Both the position numbers and the translations under genes were made by a program. Positions 34,206 through 55,748 of a stretch of DNA of 64,000 nucleotides are shown here, piece by piece. This DNA comes from Octopus vulgaris (taxonomy: Eukaryota), in NCBI GenBank assembly GCA_951406725.2, contig OX597825.1, positions 36,952,001 to 37,016,000 on the forward strand, in the 5' to 3' direction. The notes beneath the pieces are model-generated. The model made no database searches. It had not been told where the DNA came from and saw only the letters and a program-made list of their open reading frames with translations. Position 1 is the first letter of the stretch. Each line of letters begins with the position of its first letter.

Positions 34206-35656
34206 CAGGATGCGAGAGATATTTGAGGACATATTGAGTTAATTTTAATAAAAATATTGTGCACATTTTCTCCATACCCTTTCTTATAGCATATCTCCAA
34301 TGACTGCTTCTATACGGGACCAGAATCGTTAATATACCTGCACTAAATAGTTAGTCTTTATTAATTTTGGTGATTAATTGGACAATGGCGATTTCAGTGA
34401 AGCGTTGATATAGTGAGAATGTCAACCAACCTGTCTCACTTTCAACAAACGTAGTAGTCCATGGAATTTAAATCAGTCGAGGTTGGAGGCCGCAAGTTTG
34501 ATTTTACATATTGTAATGATTGCTCGACATCAATTCTGGGTTACATGTAGATTGTTATACCAAGTGAGGAATGAAATCGGTTTAGTAGCCCAAAAAAAGT
34601 AATAAGGGATATTAATATCAGAATTAAAGATACTACTATGTTACTGCAATGGGATAATAGCAGCTCTGTAATAAGTCGGTTTAAGAATTTAAAGGATAAG
34701 AAGAGGACCAGATTTTGAGAGTTTGATATGATAGATTTTTATCCCTCAAAATCAAGATCGCCACTTGATAAAGTAATTGAGTTCGCTAAAACATATCTTG
34801 ATATAGACCATATATACCGCGGGTATCGTATGATGTACCGAGATGATCGTATGATAGTGCAGACATCTGCGTTCTTGTAGGTATCTTTATATTAAATACA
34901 TTAAGACCCAAGTTCTCTTTATATTAAATACACTGAGTTCTAAACCGATACAGATGAATTGGTTGATGTACAAAGGGGGTGATCGTATGATAGTGCAGAT
35001 ACCTGCGATCTTTTAGATATCTTTATATTAAATGGCGACCTGGCAGCTGGAGTCTTAGAGTAGCTGTCCACCGAAGTTCCATATAATATGGGAATGAAAA
35101 AGGAAAAGGAGGAAAATACAATGTTACTAAAACAAAGACACATTCACAAGTAGACAAACAAATGGTTTGATTAGGGTATAATCAATTTGGCGAGGAAACT
35201 AAAGAGAAAATATTACGACGATGACCACCACAGATCTACAATGGAAGAATTCACCACGTGTAGTTGAGGGTAAAAGAAATCGTTGAACGACAGTAAGTAC
35301 GTCCAAAATTTATAAAGCAGTGACATACATACATACATAGATACTTGTAGCACACATGTATATACGTGCAGAGTGAAAATAAATCACACTATTTAATGTG
35401 ACGGACTACACTGCAAAAAAATCAAAAATTTCATTTCTGTTTACAAACTTTCTCCGTGTCTATACGCACAAATACTTTTATGTATACACACGCAATATTT
35501 AAGAAAAAAAGGAATATACACAAAAAAGAACGAAACATGTGTATATACACACACAATATTTAAGAACAAGGAATATACACAAAAAAGAACGAATCAAAAC
35601 AAATATTTTATATTTTACTTTTATCGTATTGTTGTTTACATTTTCTGTCTCTACGG

Positions 35657-36049
35657 ATGACCAGAACCAACAGAATCGCCATGGTGAAATCCATAGCGGC
35701 GTGCGATAAGACTGGTCGCTGCTCTAAAATAGAACACTGCCCAGAAAATCACACCTGCCACATCTGTACGGAACCCGAAAATACGTTCCGTAATCGCTGG
35801 GTCGAATGTGGGACATGTCTCATCTCTGTCTGCCTCCAATGTGCCACGGACTTTCAGAAGATCCCAGGCCAAAAAAAGAGCCATCATAATGCTATGATGG
35901 ATAGACTCTGGAAGATGGTTCAGCTTAAATCTTGGACTTTTCAGTGTCAGGCCTGCGTGCCTCCACAACCGACGATTGTGTCTCCCCTGCCACTCCCGTG
36001 GAGGAGGCGGAACAGCAACAGCAGCAACAACAAAATCAACCACAACCAG

Positions 36050-36082
<33 letters not shown>

Positions 36083-36867
36083 TAGAGCAGCAGCAACAAC
36101 AAAATCAACCACAACCAGAGCAGCAGCAACAACAAAATCAACCACAACCAGAGCAGCAGCAACAACAACATCAACAACAACAACAGCAACAACAAAATCA
36201 ACCACAACCAGAGCAACAGCAGCAACAACAACAACACCAATTGACCAGTGCGGTTCTTGCAGAACTGCAACAATCGATCTGTGCTTTAAAAGGGGAAGTA
36301 GCAGGAATAAAAGCAACCATTCAGGTTGGACTCCACAATGAGGGGTCTTATCGGAATGCTCTGCTAAAGAACCTCCCTGTACCTGTACCTCTTGTCGCAT
36401 TTAAGACCGCGGATTCTGCCACCCATGAAGTCATTGCCATTGGGGTGCCAGAAGACATGGCTGATCTTCAGGCTTTTGCTGCCAACTCAGCCAAAGACCT
36501 AGGCTGCGTTCCCCCAACGGGTGCTATCCGCCTTGGACGACCTGGCCCAAAACCTAGGCTCATCAAGTTGTCTTTTACGGACCCCACTGAGGCAACCTCT
36601 TACCATCTGGCCTCAGTTAAAGCTGGGCGGGAAAATCGGACCACCTTCCGAACACGCCCAGGCTTACCGTCCGATGTACGTCCGAAGCTACGTGTAGTGG
36701 CTTCCCTGAATAGGAACTCAGCTCTACAGGAAAGCTTCAGTCTTCGGGAAGATGGACAAATCTGGAGATTTGTCAAGACTGCTGAAACGTGGAAGAGAGA
36801 TACCAGCTGGTCTGAGTGCTCTCTACCCACAATAACTAAAAAGACTACAGCAACTCAGGGAAACTAA
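35657..36867 (+). CDS. LINE ORF1 protein (PHD finger, polyQ/QPQPE repeats, coiled coil, RRM-like domain), split by one frameshift near 35950-35990
   Basis: ORF 35657-36085 gives CHIC..WVECGTC..VCLQC..FQCQAC (PHD-like). Overlapping -1 frame ORF 35932-36867 gives polyQ, LAELQQSICALKGEVAGIK, then IGVPE..RLG..KPRLIKLSF, typical of CR1/L2 ORF1. Ends CAG GGA AAC TAA. Confidence 0.8.
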
Positions 36868-39689
36868 GCCAGAACAACCTGCCATCCTCTACACACCATC
36901 ATAAACTGCGAGCAGGGTACAAATTGTTGTCCTTAAATGCTCGCAGTTTATGCAACAAAATACATTTGTTCAACGCCTACGTCAGAAGTGTTGACCCTGA
37001 CTTCATCACTGTCACGGAAACATGGGCGCATTCCTTACTCTGTGATGGGGTTTTCAACATTACGGGGTACAACCTCTTCCGTAAGGACCGCACTAACCGC
37101 CGTGGTGGTGGTGTGATGGTCTACGTTCGTTCAAATTTTTTGGTAATTCCTTGTGCCGATTTGAACGAATCACAAGAAGAAGTTTTTTTCTGTGACGTGC
37201 GTATGACCATGTCAACACTCCTGCTTGGCGTTGTTTATCGTCCCCCAAGTTACCATCGGGACACACAGCTTTGCAATGTCCTCCGAGCTGCTGCCAGGAA
37301 AACAGCCACTTATGTGTTTATTGCAGGCGATTTCAATCATCCTGAGATCGATTGGGAGACCTTCCATTGGCCACAGAGTGCAAACGATTTTGTTGAGCTT
37401 GTGCTGGACTCAAACTGGTCACAAGTAGTCACCTCTCCAACAAGAGGCGACAACACCTTGGACCTGCTCTTCACCACAACTCCTGAAGCAGTTATCAATT
37501 GCACTACGGAGGAACCTCTAGGTGACTCTGATCATGCTATGATCATCGCCAATCTGGCTCTTGCGGGCAACAAAAACCTGAACCATCTCCAATCTGCTTC
37601 CTTCGATTGGAAGAGAGCAGATTGGAACCTGTACCACACTGAACTACAGCACCCAAACTGGCGTGAATTCTACAACTCTGGAGATGTGAATACTATACTC
37701 CAGAGTATCCTGGACTCAATATGGGCAGCATGTGCAGCATCAGTGCCACGTAAACAAAAAAAGAAGAACCGCCCCAAAAGGGCAATTTGGGAAACTTCAG
37801 CGGTCCGACTTGCCAGGAGGGAACGTCGGACTGCTGAACGGGAATACAGGTTGCATAAATCAGACACCAACAGGAAGAAGCGGAATAAATCCTCCAACCA
37901 TCTCAAGCAAGTGACAAAAAAAGCAGTGCTTGAATTTGAACAGTGCATAGCAGCCAATCCTGACAGCAAGGTTTTCTGGAAATATGTGCACTCAAAGCAG
38001 AGACCTCACTCTCCAGTGGGCCCTCTTCGCAACCCTCACACAAACCAGATCACTGACGACCCCAAGGAATGCGCAGAACTCATTGCCGAGTGCTATGCAA
38101 ACATATTCACTGTTGAAAGTCAAAATGTACCATCTTCACCATCACTAACAGCAAACTCCATAACAACTATGGAATTTACACCTGCAATGCTGCGACGTCA
38201 CCTTCAAAATAAGCGCAACTATGCCTCCCCTGGTCTCGATGGAGTTACATACCTGCTTCTCAAACGTGGCAGGCACTTCCTTTTACACCAGCTTTCTATT
38301 TTCTTCCAGTACTGTCTCAACAATGGTGCTACTCCGGAGCAGTGGAAAACTGCCAGTGTCATTCCTCTGTTCAAAAAGGGCGACCGCACATCACCTGTCA
38401 ACTATCGCCCAGTCAGTCTCACTAGCTGTATTGCAAAACTGATGGAATCGTGTGTCAGAGAAACACTCTGGAACTTCTGGAGCTCTCACAGTCTCATCCG
38501 ACCCTCACAATATGGATTTGTCCCTAACTCCAGCTGCAGTGACCAGCTTGTCGAGTTCCTTGAGGACATTACTCAGATTACTGACAGTGGCTCATGGGTG
38601 GATGTTGTCTACCTTGACTTTGCTAAGGCTTTCAACTCTGTGCCACACAAAAGGCTTATGGTGAAACTCTCTGCAATGGGTGTGGGGGATGACCTTTTTA
38701 ACTGGTTGAAATCCTTCATCCTCAGCCGAAAGGAGGTAGTCACAGTTCTAGGACAGCACTCTACACCATATGAGATGTCATCGGGTGTACCACAGGGATC
38801 TGTCCTTGGTCCCCTCTTGTTTGTGGCATACATTAACGACATAGATGCCAATTTAAAGAATGCCACAGTATTGAAATATGCAGACGACATCAAGCTGTAC
38901 CTTGAAATCAAGAGGACAGATCCTGATGTCTACAACTCTTTCCTGCAATCAGACCTAGACACAATGCAGCAATGGATCACAGACTGGCAACTGAAACTGG
39001 CTGTGGACAAGTGTACCACCATGCATTTTGGGAGAAAAAACCCTGCGTTCACATACTCCCTCCACAACACTGATATCAAGAAATCCTCTTGTGAGCGTGA
39101 CCTAGGCATCACTGTCAGCAGTGATTTGCGTTGGTCAAAGCATATCTCTAAGATTGTCAGGAAGGCCGAGGGTGTCTTGGCATCACTCAGCAGGTCTTTT
39201 GTTAGCCGCTCTCCAGCCATCTATTTAAAACTGTATACAGCTATGGTACGACCACACTTGGAATTCGCATCATCAGTTTGGAACCCCTATCTTGCACAGA
39301 ACATTGACCTCCTGGAATCTGTCCAGAGACGTGCAACCAAACGCATACCCTCCATCAGACACCTACCATATTCTGAGCGCCTTGTTTCCCTGGGCATGGA
39401 TTCACTGAAGCTCCGGCGTTTGGCGACGGACTTGGTAAACACCCACAAAGTTATCAACCACCTCACCAACAACAACACTGAACACCTTTTTGATCTCCAT
39501 GTGTCTAACACACGTGGACATGCCTACAAAGTCAGAAAACAATACAGCTCCCATGACTTTCGGAAACATTTTTTCACGCTCAGAGTTGCTGAAGCATGGA
39601 ATAAACTGCCTGCGTCAGTTGTTGACTGCCATGACACTGCATCTTTTAAGGCCCTCATGCTTTCCGAAATCCGCCGAAACTACATCTGA
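36840..39689 (+). CDS. LINE ORF2: AP endonuclease + reverse transcriptase (CR1-type); no ATG start
   Basis: Frame is open from 36840 (after TAA 36837-36839) to 39689. APE motifs SLNARS, VTETW, GDFN, TRGDNTLDL, SDH. RT motifs NYRPVSLTS, YLDFAKAF, GVPQGSVLGP, YADD, ERDLG. CR1-like C-terminus TRGH..K..RKHFF..RV..WNKLP. Confidence 0.95.
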   Translation, partial: KDYSNSGKLSQNNLPSSTHHHKLRAGYKLLSLNARSLCNKIHLFNAYVRSVDPDFITVTETWAHSLLCDGVFNITGYNLFRKDRTNRRGGGVMVYVRSNFLVIPCADLNESQEEVFFCDVRMTMSTLLLGVVYRPPSYHRDTQLCNVLRAAARKTATYVFIAGDFNHPEIDWETFHWPQSANDFVELVLDSNWSQVVTSPTRGDNTLDLLFTTTPEAVINCTTEEPLGDSDHAMIIANLALAGNKNLNHLQSASFDWKRADWNLYHTELQHPNWREFYNSGDVNTILQSILDSIWAACAASVPRKQKKKNRPKRAIWETSAVRLARRERRTAEREYRLHKSDTNRKKRNKSSNHLKQVTKKAVLEFEQCIAANPDSKVFWKYVHSKQRPHSPVGPLRNPHTNQITDDPKECAELIAECYANIFTVESQNVPSSPSLTANSITTMEFTPAMLRRHLQNKRNYASPGLDGVTYLLLKRGRHFLLHQLSIFFQYCLNNGATPEQWKTASVIPLFKKGDRTSPVNYRPVSLTSCIAKLMESCVRETLWNFWSSHSLIRPSQYGFVPNSSCSDQLVEFLEDITQITDSGSWVDVVYLDFAKAFNSVPHKRLMVKLSAMGVGDDLFNWLKSFILSRKEVVTVLGQHSTPYEMSSGVPQGSVLGPLLFVAYINDIDANLKNATVLKYADDIKLYLEIKRTDPDVYNSFLQSDLDTMQQWITDWQLKLAVDKCTTMHFGRKNPAFTYSLHNTDIKKSSCERDLGITVSSDLRWSKHISKIVRKAEGVLASLSRSFVSRSPAIYLKLYTAMVRPHLEFASSVWNPYLAQNIDLLESVQRRATKRIPSIRHLPYSERLVSLGMDSLKLRRLATDLVNTHKVINHLTNNNTEHLFDLHVSNTRGHAYKVRKQYSSHDFRKHFFTLRVAEAWNKLPASVVDCHDTASFKALMLSEIRRNYI
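36858..36864 (+). promoter_or_regulatory. Candidate -1 ribosomal frameshift slippery heptamer G_GGA_AAC
   Basis: X_XXY_YYZ in ORF1 phase (CAG GGA AAC TAA). A -1 slip enters the ORF2 frame (GGG AAA CTA AGC...). Confidence 0.65.
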
Positions 39690-41654
39690 TTATATATACA
39701 CTTTAGATGAGTTGTAGTGCACCTGAGCACTGTACACAATTATTATTATTATTATTATTATTATTTTAAATACACTGAGACACAAGTTCCCATCCTGTGA
39801 TGTTGGTCTGAATCGGAACGATGGGTTAGGAATATCTCATGGCTGGGATGGTCAAACTCTTGATAAATTTAGGAAAAACTCATTAATATATTCAGTTAAT
39901 TAGGCCTCAAAATCACCGCGTATACTAATTTGCCAAAGGTCAATATTTTGAATGTTTCCTCAGATCTAAACTCCCACTCTTATAACCGTACCATAAGAAA
40001 TATTACAACCCTTCAAGTAAAAATATGAATCATAAAAATAGATCTAAAAATACAGCTAAGAAAAGAATATGGTCACTTTTTCCCTAAATACTAAAACTAA
40101 CGTAGGTACAAATACAGGAAGATTTTTAACAGACGCTCGAGAAGGACATAATCACTCGTGAGCGTCACCTAGAGCTCACTCCCAGTTGTAACTGTCGAAA
40201 CCCTCAAATCTGCCAACTTAACCAGGTATGTATGATAAGCTCCGTCATATATGGAGCAAAAGTCACAGCAACGTTACAAGATAACCTAATAGGAATGAAA
40301 AATTAAATTGGGTTATGAGAAGGCGATTTCAAAAGACGTTATACAAACCTCTTATCTTCTTTCCGGTACATAGGCAAAAGAAACTCACTAAGTTGGGTAC
40401 CAACGTATGGAGTTTGTAGGCTAACAGCACACCTCATACAATCAAGTGAAGAATTGTAGAGAAATCCATGCTATATGTTAATTGACCTAAGAAATGTAAC
40501 TTATGCGTAGCTGAAAGACCGCATATTCTTTTTATATATCTAAGAATTTCACCGCACTACTAAATTCCAGATCAGAAATTTTCAGTAAATGCAAACATAT
40601 GGACAACTTCTTTTGGCGAACTGCAGGACGCCACCCTCTCCGAATCGAGCAGCTGTCTTGCAGACGTTGGAACACGGGGTTGAATTACTTTAAAAGAAGT
40701 AGCTTAATTATGGCTTTAAAGTCAATGAGGACATAACCCTAATTTTTCTTTCATTTTCCTTTTTTTGTTTCTATTCATCCTTCGAATCTTTGCATATATC
40801 TTCTCGTTGTTTTCTCCTGATTTCTCCTGATTTATAAATTGAATAGACCTCACAGCCTGAGATTGGTTGGAGATGAAAAGTGTGCTATAAAAAGCTGTCT
40901 AGACCAACGTTTCCAAAGCAAAAAACTATTAGCAGCTCGTATCTTTATACGGTGTACATTAAATAATATTTACCTCTATTTGGATTGAGTACATTTTGTT
41001 GATCCTATCTTAACGGAACAGTAAACTATATATATATATGTGTGTATATATATATACATACACGCATATACATACATATACGCACGAACTTACATACATG
41101 CACATACGCACATGCACACACACATATTAAATCATTGGAGGGTATTTTATTTTATCAAACACTGTAAGAGAAAACATAAAGTAGATACAGACGCACTTGA
41201 CAGTAATACAACGAAATATTTCAATGAATTTTTGTTTACCGCACCGATTCCGCCATCGTGCGCTGATAGACACACATGCACACACACACGTACACACATT
41301 TAATGCTCATTTGCAAAGCAACTGTGCGTGTGTGCAGAGGCTATGTAGAATACAAGTAATATGCATATGCTTAGTCTCACTGTGAAAGTAGACATAGATA
41401 AACGTAATAGGCTTCGGAAAGTTGAGATGATAACCAAAACGACGATTTTAATGACTCATCAGAGATCGCTTATCTCGCTTTACCAGATAATTACTTAAAA
41501 TTAAAATGAAAAAAAACCTGACATTCCGCGTATATACTCTGAAGAATGGGAAGAATGGCGTTCCCTTTATAAGAATAATTATACATTAAAAAAAAATTAT
41601 ATTCGAAAGACATTAACAGCAACAACAACCACAACAGTGATAATAATAATTCTT

Positions 41655-54559: not shown

Positions 54560-55748
54560 TACCAGTGACGGAACAGGATATAAGAATGAAAGCTATAGGT
54601 GATGAGTATATTAACAAAATAAAAGAAGCTTTAAAAAATAAACAGAATAAAAATTCAGATGTCAATAGTTTTTAAGTTTGCGACGATATTCTGATGTATG
54701 CTCAAAGAGTGGTGGTTCCAACTACATTACACAAAGGTGTATTGCAACAATTTCACAGCGGACATCCAGGAATGTTGAGGATGAAGGCTCTGATGAGGAG
54801 TTATGTCTCTTGGCCGTCCATGGACGGAGGTATCGAAAATTTGGTGAGAACATGCCGAGGTTGCGCGCTCGCGGCCAAAGCCCCACCGGTAAAATATCAA
54901 TCGTGGTCAGAGACGGAGAACCCATGGTCTATATCATACATTGACTATGCCGGACCGGTAAACGGCACTTACTACCTAATCGAAGTAGATAGCTGTACTA
55001 AGTGGCTGGAGGTTTGCAGGTGTTATAGACCAACCCCTAAGACAACTATAAAATTTTCATACGAATTGTTTGCGCGATACAGTATCCATGATACGTTAAT
55101 TTCAGACAACGGAACGCAGTTCTCTGGGTATGAATTTAAGAACTTCTGTAAAAGCATGCGATAAAGCATATTTTCACTCCACCCTACCACCCGAAGTTAA
55201 ACGGGCATGTAGAAAGATTTGTGGACACCCTTAAGAGAGCGTTAAGAAAAGCGAGGAATGAATTAAGTAACGACGAAGCACTGACAAATTTCTTAAGATT
55301 ATACAGAGTAACCCCCCCCCCCCCACCCAATACAAGTACAAATTCAGGGAAGTCTTCTGCAGAATTGATGTTCGCAAGAAGAATAAAATCCATTTTTGAT
55401 TGCTGTTACCAGAGAAAAAAGTTGTAAAGGAAATACGAAAGAGTCACCGAAATATGTCGAGATAGGTAATAAAGTGCATTTCAAAACCTATAGAAGGCTG
55501 GAAGATGGCCTTGTCACCAGAAAAATTGGAACACTATAATGTATCTAATTAAAGGGTCACACGGTGAACATAAGAGGCATATATATTTTCTAAGGAAGAG
55601 GCATACCCAAGATCAGGGAGAAATTCCCAAGGAAGTATTCTGTGAAATATTCGATGTACCACTACCAAAAGTAATAGTCCTGTAGAACCAGGATGAGAAA
55701 AACAAACCGAATACCTTGAGATAGTGCCAAAACGAAAGAGGTACTAAT

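Follow-up and report, generated by a model that had tools for sequence, protein, structure and literature searches.

How does a LINE make its reverse transcriptase when its second ORF has no early start codon? This question is raised by an element in the window, the whole stretch of 64,000 nucleotides of Octopus vulgaris DNA analyzed here, for which the first-pass annotation had suggested a retrovirus-style -1 frameshift. The features needed for the argument are as follows (all on the + strand).

35035..39765, near full-length CR1-type LINE copy of subfamily A; 5' end approximate, (ATT)n 3' tail
34924..34937, 14-bp direct repeat, likely left target-site duplication
39766..39779, 14-bp direct repeat, likely right target-site duplication
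39739..39765, 3'-terminal (ATT)n repeat, preceded by a short 3' UTR
35657..36867, ORF1: Cys/His-rich N-terminus, Q-rich linker, coiled coil, RRM and CTD, low-confidence tail ending G-N-stop
36840..39689, ORF2 frame, 949 aa: APE endonuclease and reverse transcriptase; first ATG at 37116 (residue 93)
36858..36864, slippery heptamer G_GGA_AAC, in X_XXY_YYZ phase with ORF1
36865..36867, ORF1 stop codon TAA, directly 3' of the heptamer (TAG in relative L151)

Anatomy of the element

Matches to other copies begin at ~35029-35050, which gives the shared 5' start of the element. The flanking 14-bp repeat pair (2 matches vs 0 in 100 shuffles) probably represents the target-site duplication; ~95 bp of other sequence lies between the left repeat and the shared 5' start. 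The short 3' UTR, the tail of microsatellite type and the probable target-site duplication are traits of the CR1 clade, and the element is labeled CR1, putatively, from such anatomy and from motifs. Among the matches listed for two patterns and two protein queries against its own genome, only subfamilies A and B and an intermediate, L034, were found, and a search for relatives among viral contigs found none. The family is abundant. It is also young, 14 of 40 scored matches having the top score.

Only RVT_1 (E 5e-37), Exo_endo_phos and Exo_endo_phos_2 (E 1e-13) exceeded the Pfam cut-off in ORF2, i.e., APE followed by reverse transcriptase and no RNase H. A start at ATG 37116 would cost residues 1-92, which align with the start of L1 ORF2p from L1 residue 14; the element Zorro3 is crippled by a point substitution at its first conserved Asn (PMC1965478). 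Because the family is young and about 45 of the best 150 matches listed keep the full 949-aa frame, ORF2 must be produced.

In the window copy, ORF1 is broken near 35984, where it differs from copy L009 by one base; of 30 copies examined, 9 have an ORF1 that is uninterrupted from its first Met onward (392-431 aa). ORF1 had no Pfam family at cut-off, no Pfam family was matched by more than one member, and a PDB sequence search gave no match; its PHD-like N-terminus was judged by eye, with no Pfam match at cut-off. When ORF1 of L009 was modeled, the top Foldseek matches were human L1ORF1p (E 1.5e-5), and the model supports an L1ORF1p-like RRM-CTD fold followed by a tail with pLDDT <50 that varies in length and sequence among copies. 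A CR1 ORF1 type has been described with an N-terminal PHD, then coiled coil, RRM and CTD; none of the ORF1 types is exclusive to CR1 as compared with L2 (PMC4120745).

The ORF1-ORF2 junction

ORF1 ends with CAG (36856), GGA (36859), AAC (36862) and TAA (36865). ORF2 is -1 relative to ORF1 and opens at 36840, after a TAA at 36837, so that the overlap is 28 nt including the stop codon. Its first ATG lies downstream of both the SLNARS and VTETW motifs, and no ATG overlaps the ORF1 stop. The observation made by the first-pass annotation was borne out. The -1 frame is open from the heptamer into the needed coding region of ORF2, and the window contains a single instance of the 10-mer GGGAAACTAA vs 0.10 expected. 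The junction letters were unchanged in contigs of 4/4 public runs, with no joint there in any of the four; since these contigs show no other letters, the junction is not an assembly error.

Conservation of the heptamer within the lineage

The site is not peculiar to one copy: of 63 copies that were selected by their APE domain and contain an ORF1 tail, 59 have the heptamer and TAA unaltered, the other four having single-base changes, but such identity among copies says little because most copies are very young. We also compared four DNA branches, and found that the heptamer persists in subfamily B (APE identity 77%), in L034 and in the metagenome relative L151 (58% aa identity, TAG stop). The flanks diverge around it: the upstream 20 nt match at 3-15 of 20 letters, and the downstream 20 nt match L151 at 6 of 20. 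ORF1 tails fall into length classes of 53, 59, 62 and 71 nt in A and 50 and 53 nt in B, in steps that are multiples of 3. In the family, conservation of the heptamer exceeds that of the sequence on either side. The family also stays -1 with no upstream ATG, rather than having a consensus with ORF1 and ORF2 in frame. The C-terminus of an ORF1 relative, P0033, is likewise G-N, and this dipeptide could be retained for protein reasons.

An ORF1 tail in frame with ORF2 was found in 18 copies, all of which (18/18) are chimeras missing most of ORF1. That these chimeras were amplified with ORF1 mostly missing counts against a fusion. In-frame ORF1-ORF2 proteins of this lineage were absent among 910 candidates, which is weak evidence, and single ORFs with PHD, APE and RT occur only in distant relatives.

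Slippery heptamers in distant CR1-like elements

Distant CR1-like loci formed 43 clusters, with 27 -1 overlaps, 3 +1 overlaps, 5 same-frame junctions and 8 unscored. Most survey loci are only distantly related to the window lineage (a path of 2.3 changes per column on a quick tree whose deep branches are unresolved), and profile comparison of its ORF1 with survey ORF1s gave a weak match (probability 15.8, E 0.0016). A strict X_XXY_YYZ heptamer was in phase in 34 of 57 -1 overlaps vs 5 and 8 out of phase, and was present in 14/239 and 16/274 control windows. PMC5009743 names G_GGA_AAC among the most shift-prone heptamers. The four that it gives as most shift-prone were in phase in 14 of 28 cluster representatives with -1 overlaps vs 0 and 1 out of phase; synonymous resampling gave a mean count of 1.4 and a maximum of 6 in 300 runs. 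Codon choice for individual dipeptides followed the same pattern. Slippery codons encoded K-N in 16/29 cases inside overlaps vs 2/74 in the ORF1 body, E-N in 19/24 vs 2/84, L-N in 6/9 vs 0/56 and G-N in 4/7 vs 0/13. ORF2 frames open up to ~190 nt ahead of the ORF1 stop, and the heptamer falls within the first quarter of 33 of the 40 long overlaps. No Met precedes the APE Asn in 37 of the 57 -1 overlaps; 6 of the 57 had no heptamer even under a widened rule. Figures for frame openness across the overlap were excluded as circular, the overlap being defined by openness. Distant CR1-like elements, many of them with the same layout, independently carry in-phase slippery heptamers leading into an AUG-poor ORF2.

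RNA structure around the junction

36900..36952, + strand, strong predicted hairpin with a 15-bp outer stem, starting 35 nt after the heptamer

The textbook -1 signal includes a 3' stimulator 5-9 nt downstream (PMC3542737). No stem-loop or pseudoknot was predicted at this distance in the window element (z 0.1), B (-0.2), L034 (0.0) or L036 (0.9), a crude pseudoknot scan found none in the family, and 51 relatives showed no average stimulator (mean z for local 3' structure -0.35 vs -0.19 in controls). Because no local 3' structure is predicted, we do not class the junction as a canonical two-part cassette. The modest hairpin proposed by the first-pass annotation (ACCTGC..GCAGGGT) proved weak (-6.0 kcal/mol, z 0.1), is not kept in subfamily B and competes with the much stronger predicted stem at 36900-36952 (z -6.25), which that annotation overlooked. 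The latter reaches its greatest strength in the youngest subfamily: for structure 3' of the stop, z is -5.2 in A, about -0.6 in B and -1.4 in L151, for which a folding window beginning at the stop gives -3.3. We rejected this stem as a classical stimulator, as 35 nt is too far and it is strong in subfamily A only. A role in holding a queued ribosome over the heptamer found no general support (no dip at +30 to +40 was shared in sliding profiles across 48 relatives), and long-range pairing of the post-stop region with ORF2 was rejected as well (best duplex -24.4, inside the range of 15 shuffles, -17.7 to -32.0). Long-range or protein stimulators may contribute to frameshifting.

Probable frameshifting and alternative explanations

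A slippery heptamer and stop at the end of ORF1, together with an ORF2 lacking an early start codon, make a fusion likely, and we think that programmed -1 frameshifting probably yields a predicted ORF1-ORF2 protein of ~1345 aa. A minority of ribosomes would slip -1 on G_GGA_AAC, by tandem tRNA slippage, rather than terminate at the ORF1 stop; the adjacent stop codon, not a 3' pseudoknot, would supply the pause. The junction would read ..TQGN-LSQNN.. or ..TQGK-LSQNN, and the low-confidence ORF1 tail and ~22 variable ORF2 codons may act as a linker. The Gag-Pol-like fusion proposed earlier is thus favored by layout, conservation and distant in-phase heptamers, and its production at a set ratio is unsupported.

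The best of the alternatives, which we regard as unlikely, is AUG-independent termination-reinitiation, a mechanism proposed for human L1 and related to SART1 coupling, in which ribosomes would stop at UAA, remain on the RNA and restart at a near-cognate codon to give a separate ORF2 protein. ORF2 of human L1 can do without its AUG and works with any sense codon instead (PMC1965478), so that a missing AUG alone does not force a fusion. Candidate restart codons (CUG 36879, CUG 36906, UUG 36924 or 36927) lie in frame ahead of the first APE motif, and CUG 36906 is common to A, B and L034; however, B has CAG in place of CUG 36879, and a CUG is missing from L151 at the position equivalent to 36906. 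The strong hairpin predicted in A would fit with reinitiation as in SART1, which requires downstream structure (PMC5972666), but subfamily B has only a weak form of it (z -0.58). The lack of a predicted local frameshift stimulator also favors reinitiation. Besides, there is no UAAUG or AUGA overlap or nearby in-frame AUG at the junction, and no UGGGA was seen by eye 40-90 nt before the stop (motif as defined in PMC3542737). Nor would reinitiation lead one to expect heptamers in one specific phase, a preference for slippery codons or ORF2 frames that are open for as much as ~190 nt ahead of the ORF1 stop.

Far less probable is that the heptamer is a by-product of a constrained G-N C-terminus or of recent shared descent, with ORF2 made from another RNA that is spliced, internally started or edited. 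The youth of most copies means that their identity says little, and distant heptamers do sit on conserved ORF1 motifs (KNL, ENF), but in the survey protein constraint is rejected as the only cause by the synonymous-level tests, and the ORF1 tail is of low confidence and variable. There is no in-frame ATA for A-to-I editing into an AUG-like codon, and frame-0 readthrough past the ORF1 stop meets the next stop after 22 codons. Finally, polymerase slippage adding one base in the G3A3 run, so that some RNAs carry both ORFs in frame, is the least credible explanation: the run can gain a base, because an extra G is fixed in the 18 chimeric copies, but the runs are of three bases only, strict reading-frame phase is not predicted, and +1 RNAs would be reverse-transcribed in frame, yet 0 of 83 scored non-chimeric copies has the extra G.

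Relation to known systems and implications

G_GGA_AAC serves as a -1 slip site in SRV-1, FIV and BWYV. Frameshifting would liken the element to retroviral and RNA-virus -1 cassettes, which share the X_XXY_YYZ arrangement and the fusion of an RNA-binding structural protein to reverse transcriptase; it differs in being non-LTR, with an immediate stop, no protease and no predicted stimulator at 5-9 nt. Human L1 and SART1 resemble it in their bicistronic RNA and in an ORF1 of L1ORF1p-like RRM-CTD fold. In contrast to its -1 overlap without an AUG, the two ORFs of L1 are separated by a spacer of 63 nt and ORF2 has an AUG, and SART1 has an overlapping stop-restart (PMC5972666). The earlier claim that the studied LINEs use reinitiation or UAAUG coupling was too strong. 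Dictyostelium TRE5-A and TRE3-A, APE-type LINEs of the L1 clade, likewise have two ORFs and are stated to require a -1 frameshift for ORF2, in passages of a review that cite descriptions from 1992 and 1998 and give no slip site (PMC5911963), although they belong to a different clade and host group. Frameshifting in LINEs is therefore not wholly new; our literature search found no report of such a -1 frameshift for CR1.

It seems somewhat more probable than the opposite that much of the CR1 group, which is among the most widespread groups of animal LINEs, makes its reverse transcriptase as a Gag-Pol-like fusion by recoding, with heptamers G_GGA_AAC, G_GAA_AAC, A_AAA_AAC, U_UUA_AAC and U_UUU_UUA interchanged and UGA-C readthrough in some lineages, the window element using a stop-adjacent heptamer without a 3' pseudoknot. 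Such interchange can be likened to that of frameshifting and readthrough among retroviruses. Natural heptamer contexts number in the dozens in the survey, and many of them lack a predicted 3' structure. On the basis of studies of L1 and SART1, the way in which LINEs produce their scarce ORF2 protein is generally taken to be reinitiation. If the frameshift reading is true, the annotated ORF2 starts of CR1-type elements are wrong; that of P0002, for instance, is placed at a Met only two residues ahead of the first Asn of the catalytic motifs. Slippage of ribosomes would then determine the ratio of ORF1 to reverse transcriptase, which would itself be anchored in assemblies of ORF1.

Organization of the element

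The element in the window, which we take to be of CR1 type from its anatomy and motifs rather than from a tree with named references, had the following features (forward strand):

~35035-39765: CR1-type LINE copy with an (ATT)n end and a 14-bp direct repeat on both flanks
36856-36867: 3' end of ORF1, CAG GGA AAC TAA
36840 onward: ORF2 frame, -1 relative to ORF1, 949 codons open, first ATG at 37116

The ORF1 end, the -1 ORF2 frame and its late first ATG were all as the first-pass annotation had described, and all 4 public runs compared (four organism labels) had contigs with unchanged junction letters. ORF2 contained APE endonuclease and reverse transcriptase domains. Its alignment to human L1 ORF2p began at query residue 31 (L1 residue 14). 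Initiation at residue 93 would thus lose the first endonuclease motifs. ORF1 of the window copy was broken near 35984; it was open from the first Met in 9 of 30 near-identical copies. One open ORF1 was modelled as a coiled coil together with RRM and CTD (mean pLDDT 55), for which the top Foldseek matches were human L1ORF1p, and the heptamer G_GGA_AAC (36858-36864) fell within the low-confidence tail of this model (residues 392-404). Elsewhere in the window, the sequence 5' of the element (34838-35035, around the left direct repeat) resembles a diverged ~90-bp local duplication, and an integrase-like fragment, by eye from an LTR retrotransposon, lies at 54676-55164.

Conservation of the junction in the octopus genome

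A search of the 2.8-Gb genome with the pattern heptamer-stop-gap-LNARS gave 240 matches versus 1 control match; an APE-only pattern gave 265. After removal of 25 duplicate loci, 125 copies were examined, 102 of which had the ORF1 tail. The 10-mer (heptamer plus TAA) was scored exact in 97 of these 102 and showed single-base changes in 4; L042, mis-anchored in scoring, also has it. The 23 copies without a tail anchor were mostly 5'-truncated or too diverged, and 7 still had the site. Alignment of other genomic copies, the check proposed at first pass, bore out conservation of heptamer and stop: even where APE similarity was the sole selection criterion, 59 of 63 copies were exact. Because most copies are very young, comparisons between branches are the informative ones. 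The 10-mer was kept in sister subfamily B (77% APE identity; subfamily A, the youngest, includes the window copy) and in the A/B intermediate L034. Across copies the two letters preceding it varied (CA, TT, TG, AT, GT, CT), and ORF1 tail lengths differed by multiples of three. The exceptions were two single copies and 18 copies carrying an extra G at the heptamer (L032, L058-L062, L067-L070, L072, L073, L075-L079 and L104, on many chromosomes). In all 18, an RTE-like reverse-transcriptase segment was joined to a 5'-truncated B copy and most of ORF1 was missing; as copies of one chimera, they provide no evidence of an in-frame family. The heptamer-stop junction is a real, conserved feature.

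Relatives of the element

In the metagenome relative L151 (58% APE identity, homologous ORF1), ORF1 ended CAG GGA AAC TAG, the ORF2 frame opened 9 nt upstream of the heptamer, and the sole Met lay two residues ahead of the first APE Asn; only 6 of the 20 letters 3' of the stop were common to A, B or L034. P0033, an ORF1 relative compared as protein (58% identity across the C-terminal half), also had a G-N C-terminus.

Distant elements were sought with an APE-based scan, from which the best 80 of 304 confirmed loci were taken together with 7 from genome bins. Identity to the query was mostly 30-41%, and clustering at 60% identity gave 43 clusters. ORF2 lay in a -1 overlap in 27 clusters and in the same frame in 5; 3 were scored +1, including L151, mis-binned because of an internal break in its ORF1, and in 8 ORF1 was not scorable. 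Within this set, a strict X_XXY_YYZ heptamer stood in phase in 34 of 57 -1 loci. The two other phases had 5 and 8, and control windows 14/239 and 16/274. With XXX = GGA also allowed, a rule added after the data were seen but counted as tolerated in PMC3542737, the figures were 51 of 57 in phase versus 7 and 13. To limit the effects of relatedness and of this after-the-fact choice, we let a single locus represent each cluster and restricted the count to the four heptamers that PMC5009743 names; these occurred in phase in 20/43 (70% clusters), 14/28 (60%) and 6/12 (50%), and 0-2 times out of phase. When synonymous codons of the 28 representatives were resampled, 1.4 were in phase on average and never more than 6, compared with the 14 observed. 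The survey heptamers coincided with conserved ORF1 motifs, whose dipeptides seldom used slippery codons in the ORF1 body (per-locus counts, not independent). The heptamer was within the first quarter of the overlap in 33 of 40 long overlaps. No Met preceded the APE Asn in 37 of 57 -1 loci, and in the other 20 the distances were scattered.

Six of the 57 had no heptamer even under the widened rule. Five -1 elements of this kind (L161, L180, L186, L189, L198) shared the ORF1 codons TCG GGG GA(A/C), at the overlap opening in 4 of the 5, possibly an atypical G-run slip site. In L183/L234, L184, L199 and L220, same-frame ORFs were separated by TGA then C, a leaky-stop context according to PMC3542737; these are a possible readthrough variant of the fusion. 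Among distant relatives, P0015, P0021, P0022, P0023 and P0027 had long single ORFs, with PHD finger, APE and RT together in P0015 and P0022. L231-L237, animal-type LINE sequences in prokaryote bins (most contigs 2-4 kb, one 530-kb), are probably contamination.

RNA structure

The downstream hairpin proposed at first pass (ACCTGC..GCAGGGT, ACAA..TTGT) found no support in structure prediction. No local stimulator was predicted 5-9 nt downstream in A, B or L034, or on average across 51 relatives. Mean z was -1.7 for the 9 relatives whose stop lay no more than 3 nt from the heptamer, and L151 had -3.3. A crude pseudoknot score was passed by 14/49 relatives versus 3/49 controls and by none of the window's own family. 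A strong, lineage-specific stem was predicted at 36900-36952, 35 nt from the heptamer. It is a 15-bp inverted repeat within ORF2 coding sequence (z -6.25), perfect in the youngest subfamily only.

Synthesis of ORF2

The best explanation of the sequence patterns is probably -1 slippage, in which ribosomes would shift at the heptamer and produce an ORF1-ORF2 fusion of about 404 + 941 aa. AUG-independent reinitiation has the precedent of L1, and both the missing stimulator and one CUG common to A, B and L034 speak for it; however, this CUG is absent from L151 and the phase-specific heptamers would be left unexplained. This route is unlikely. It is very improbable that the heptamer is a by-product or that ORF2 comes from an alternative RNA, and polymerase slippage is less probable still.

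Descriptions of CR1-clade elements from the 1990s reportedly mentioned overlapping ORFs, so the idea may already be in print. Among the titles and abstract openings listed in our searches of largely open-access, more recent literature, none described a slippery site where ORF1 and ORF2 of a CR1 element meet; PMC11835228 contains the terms, with no such site in its title or the start of its abstract. A -1 frameshift is stated for TRE5-A and TRE3-A (PMC5911963). For Paramecium elements, +1 frameshifting or reinitiation has been proposed, and PMC5009743 gives HeT-A gag as a non-LTR example of frameshifting. For this LINE family, the junction is most likely a programmed -1 frameshift that would operate without a canonical 3' stimulator.
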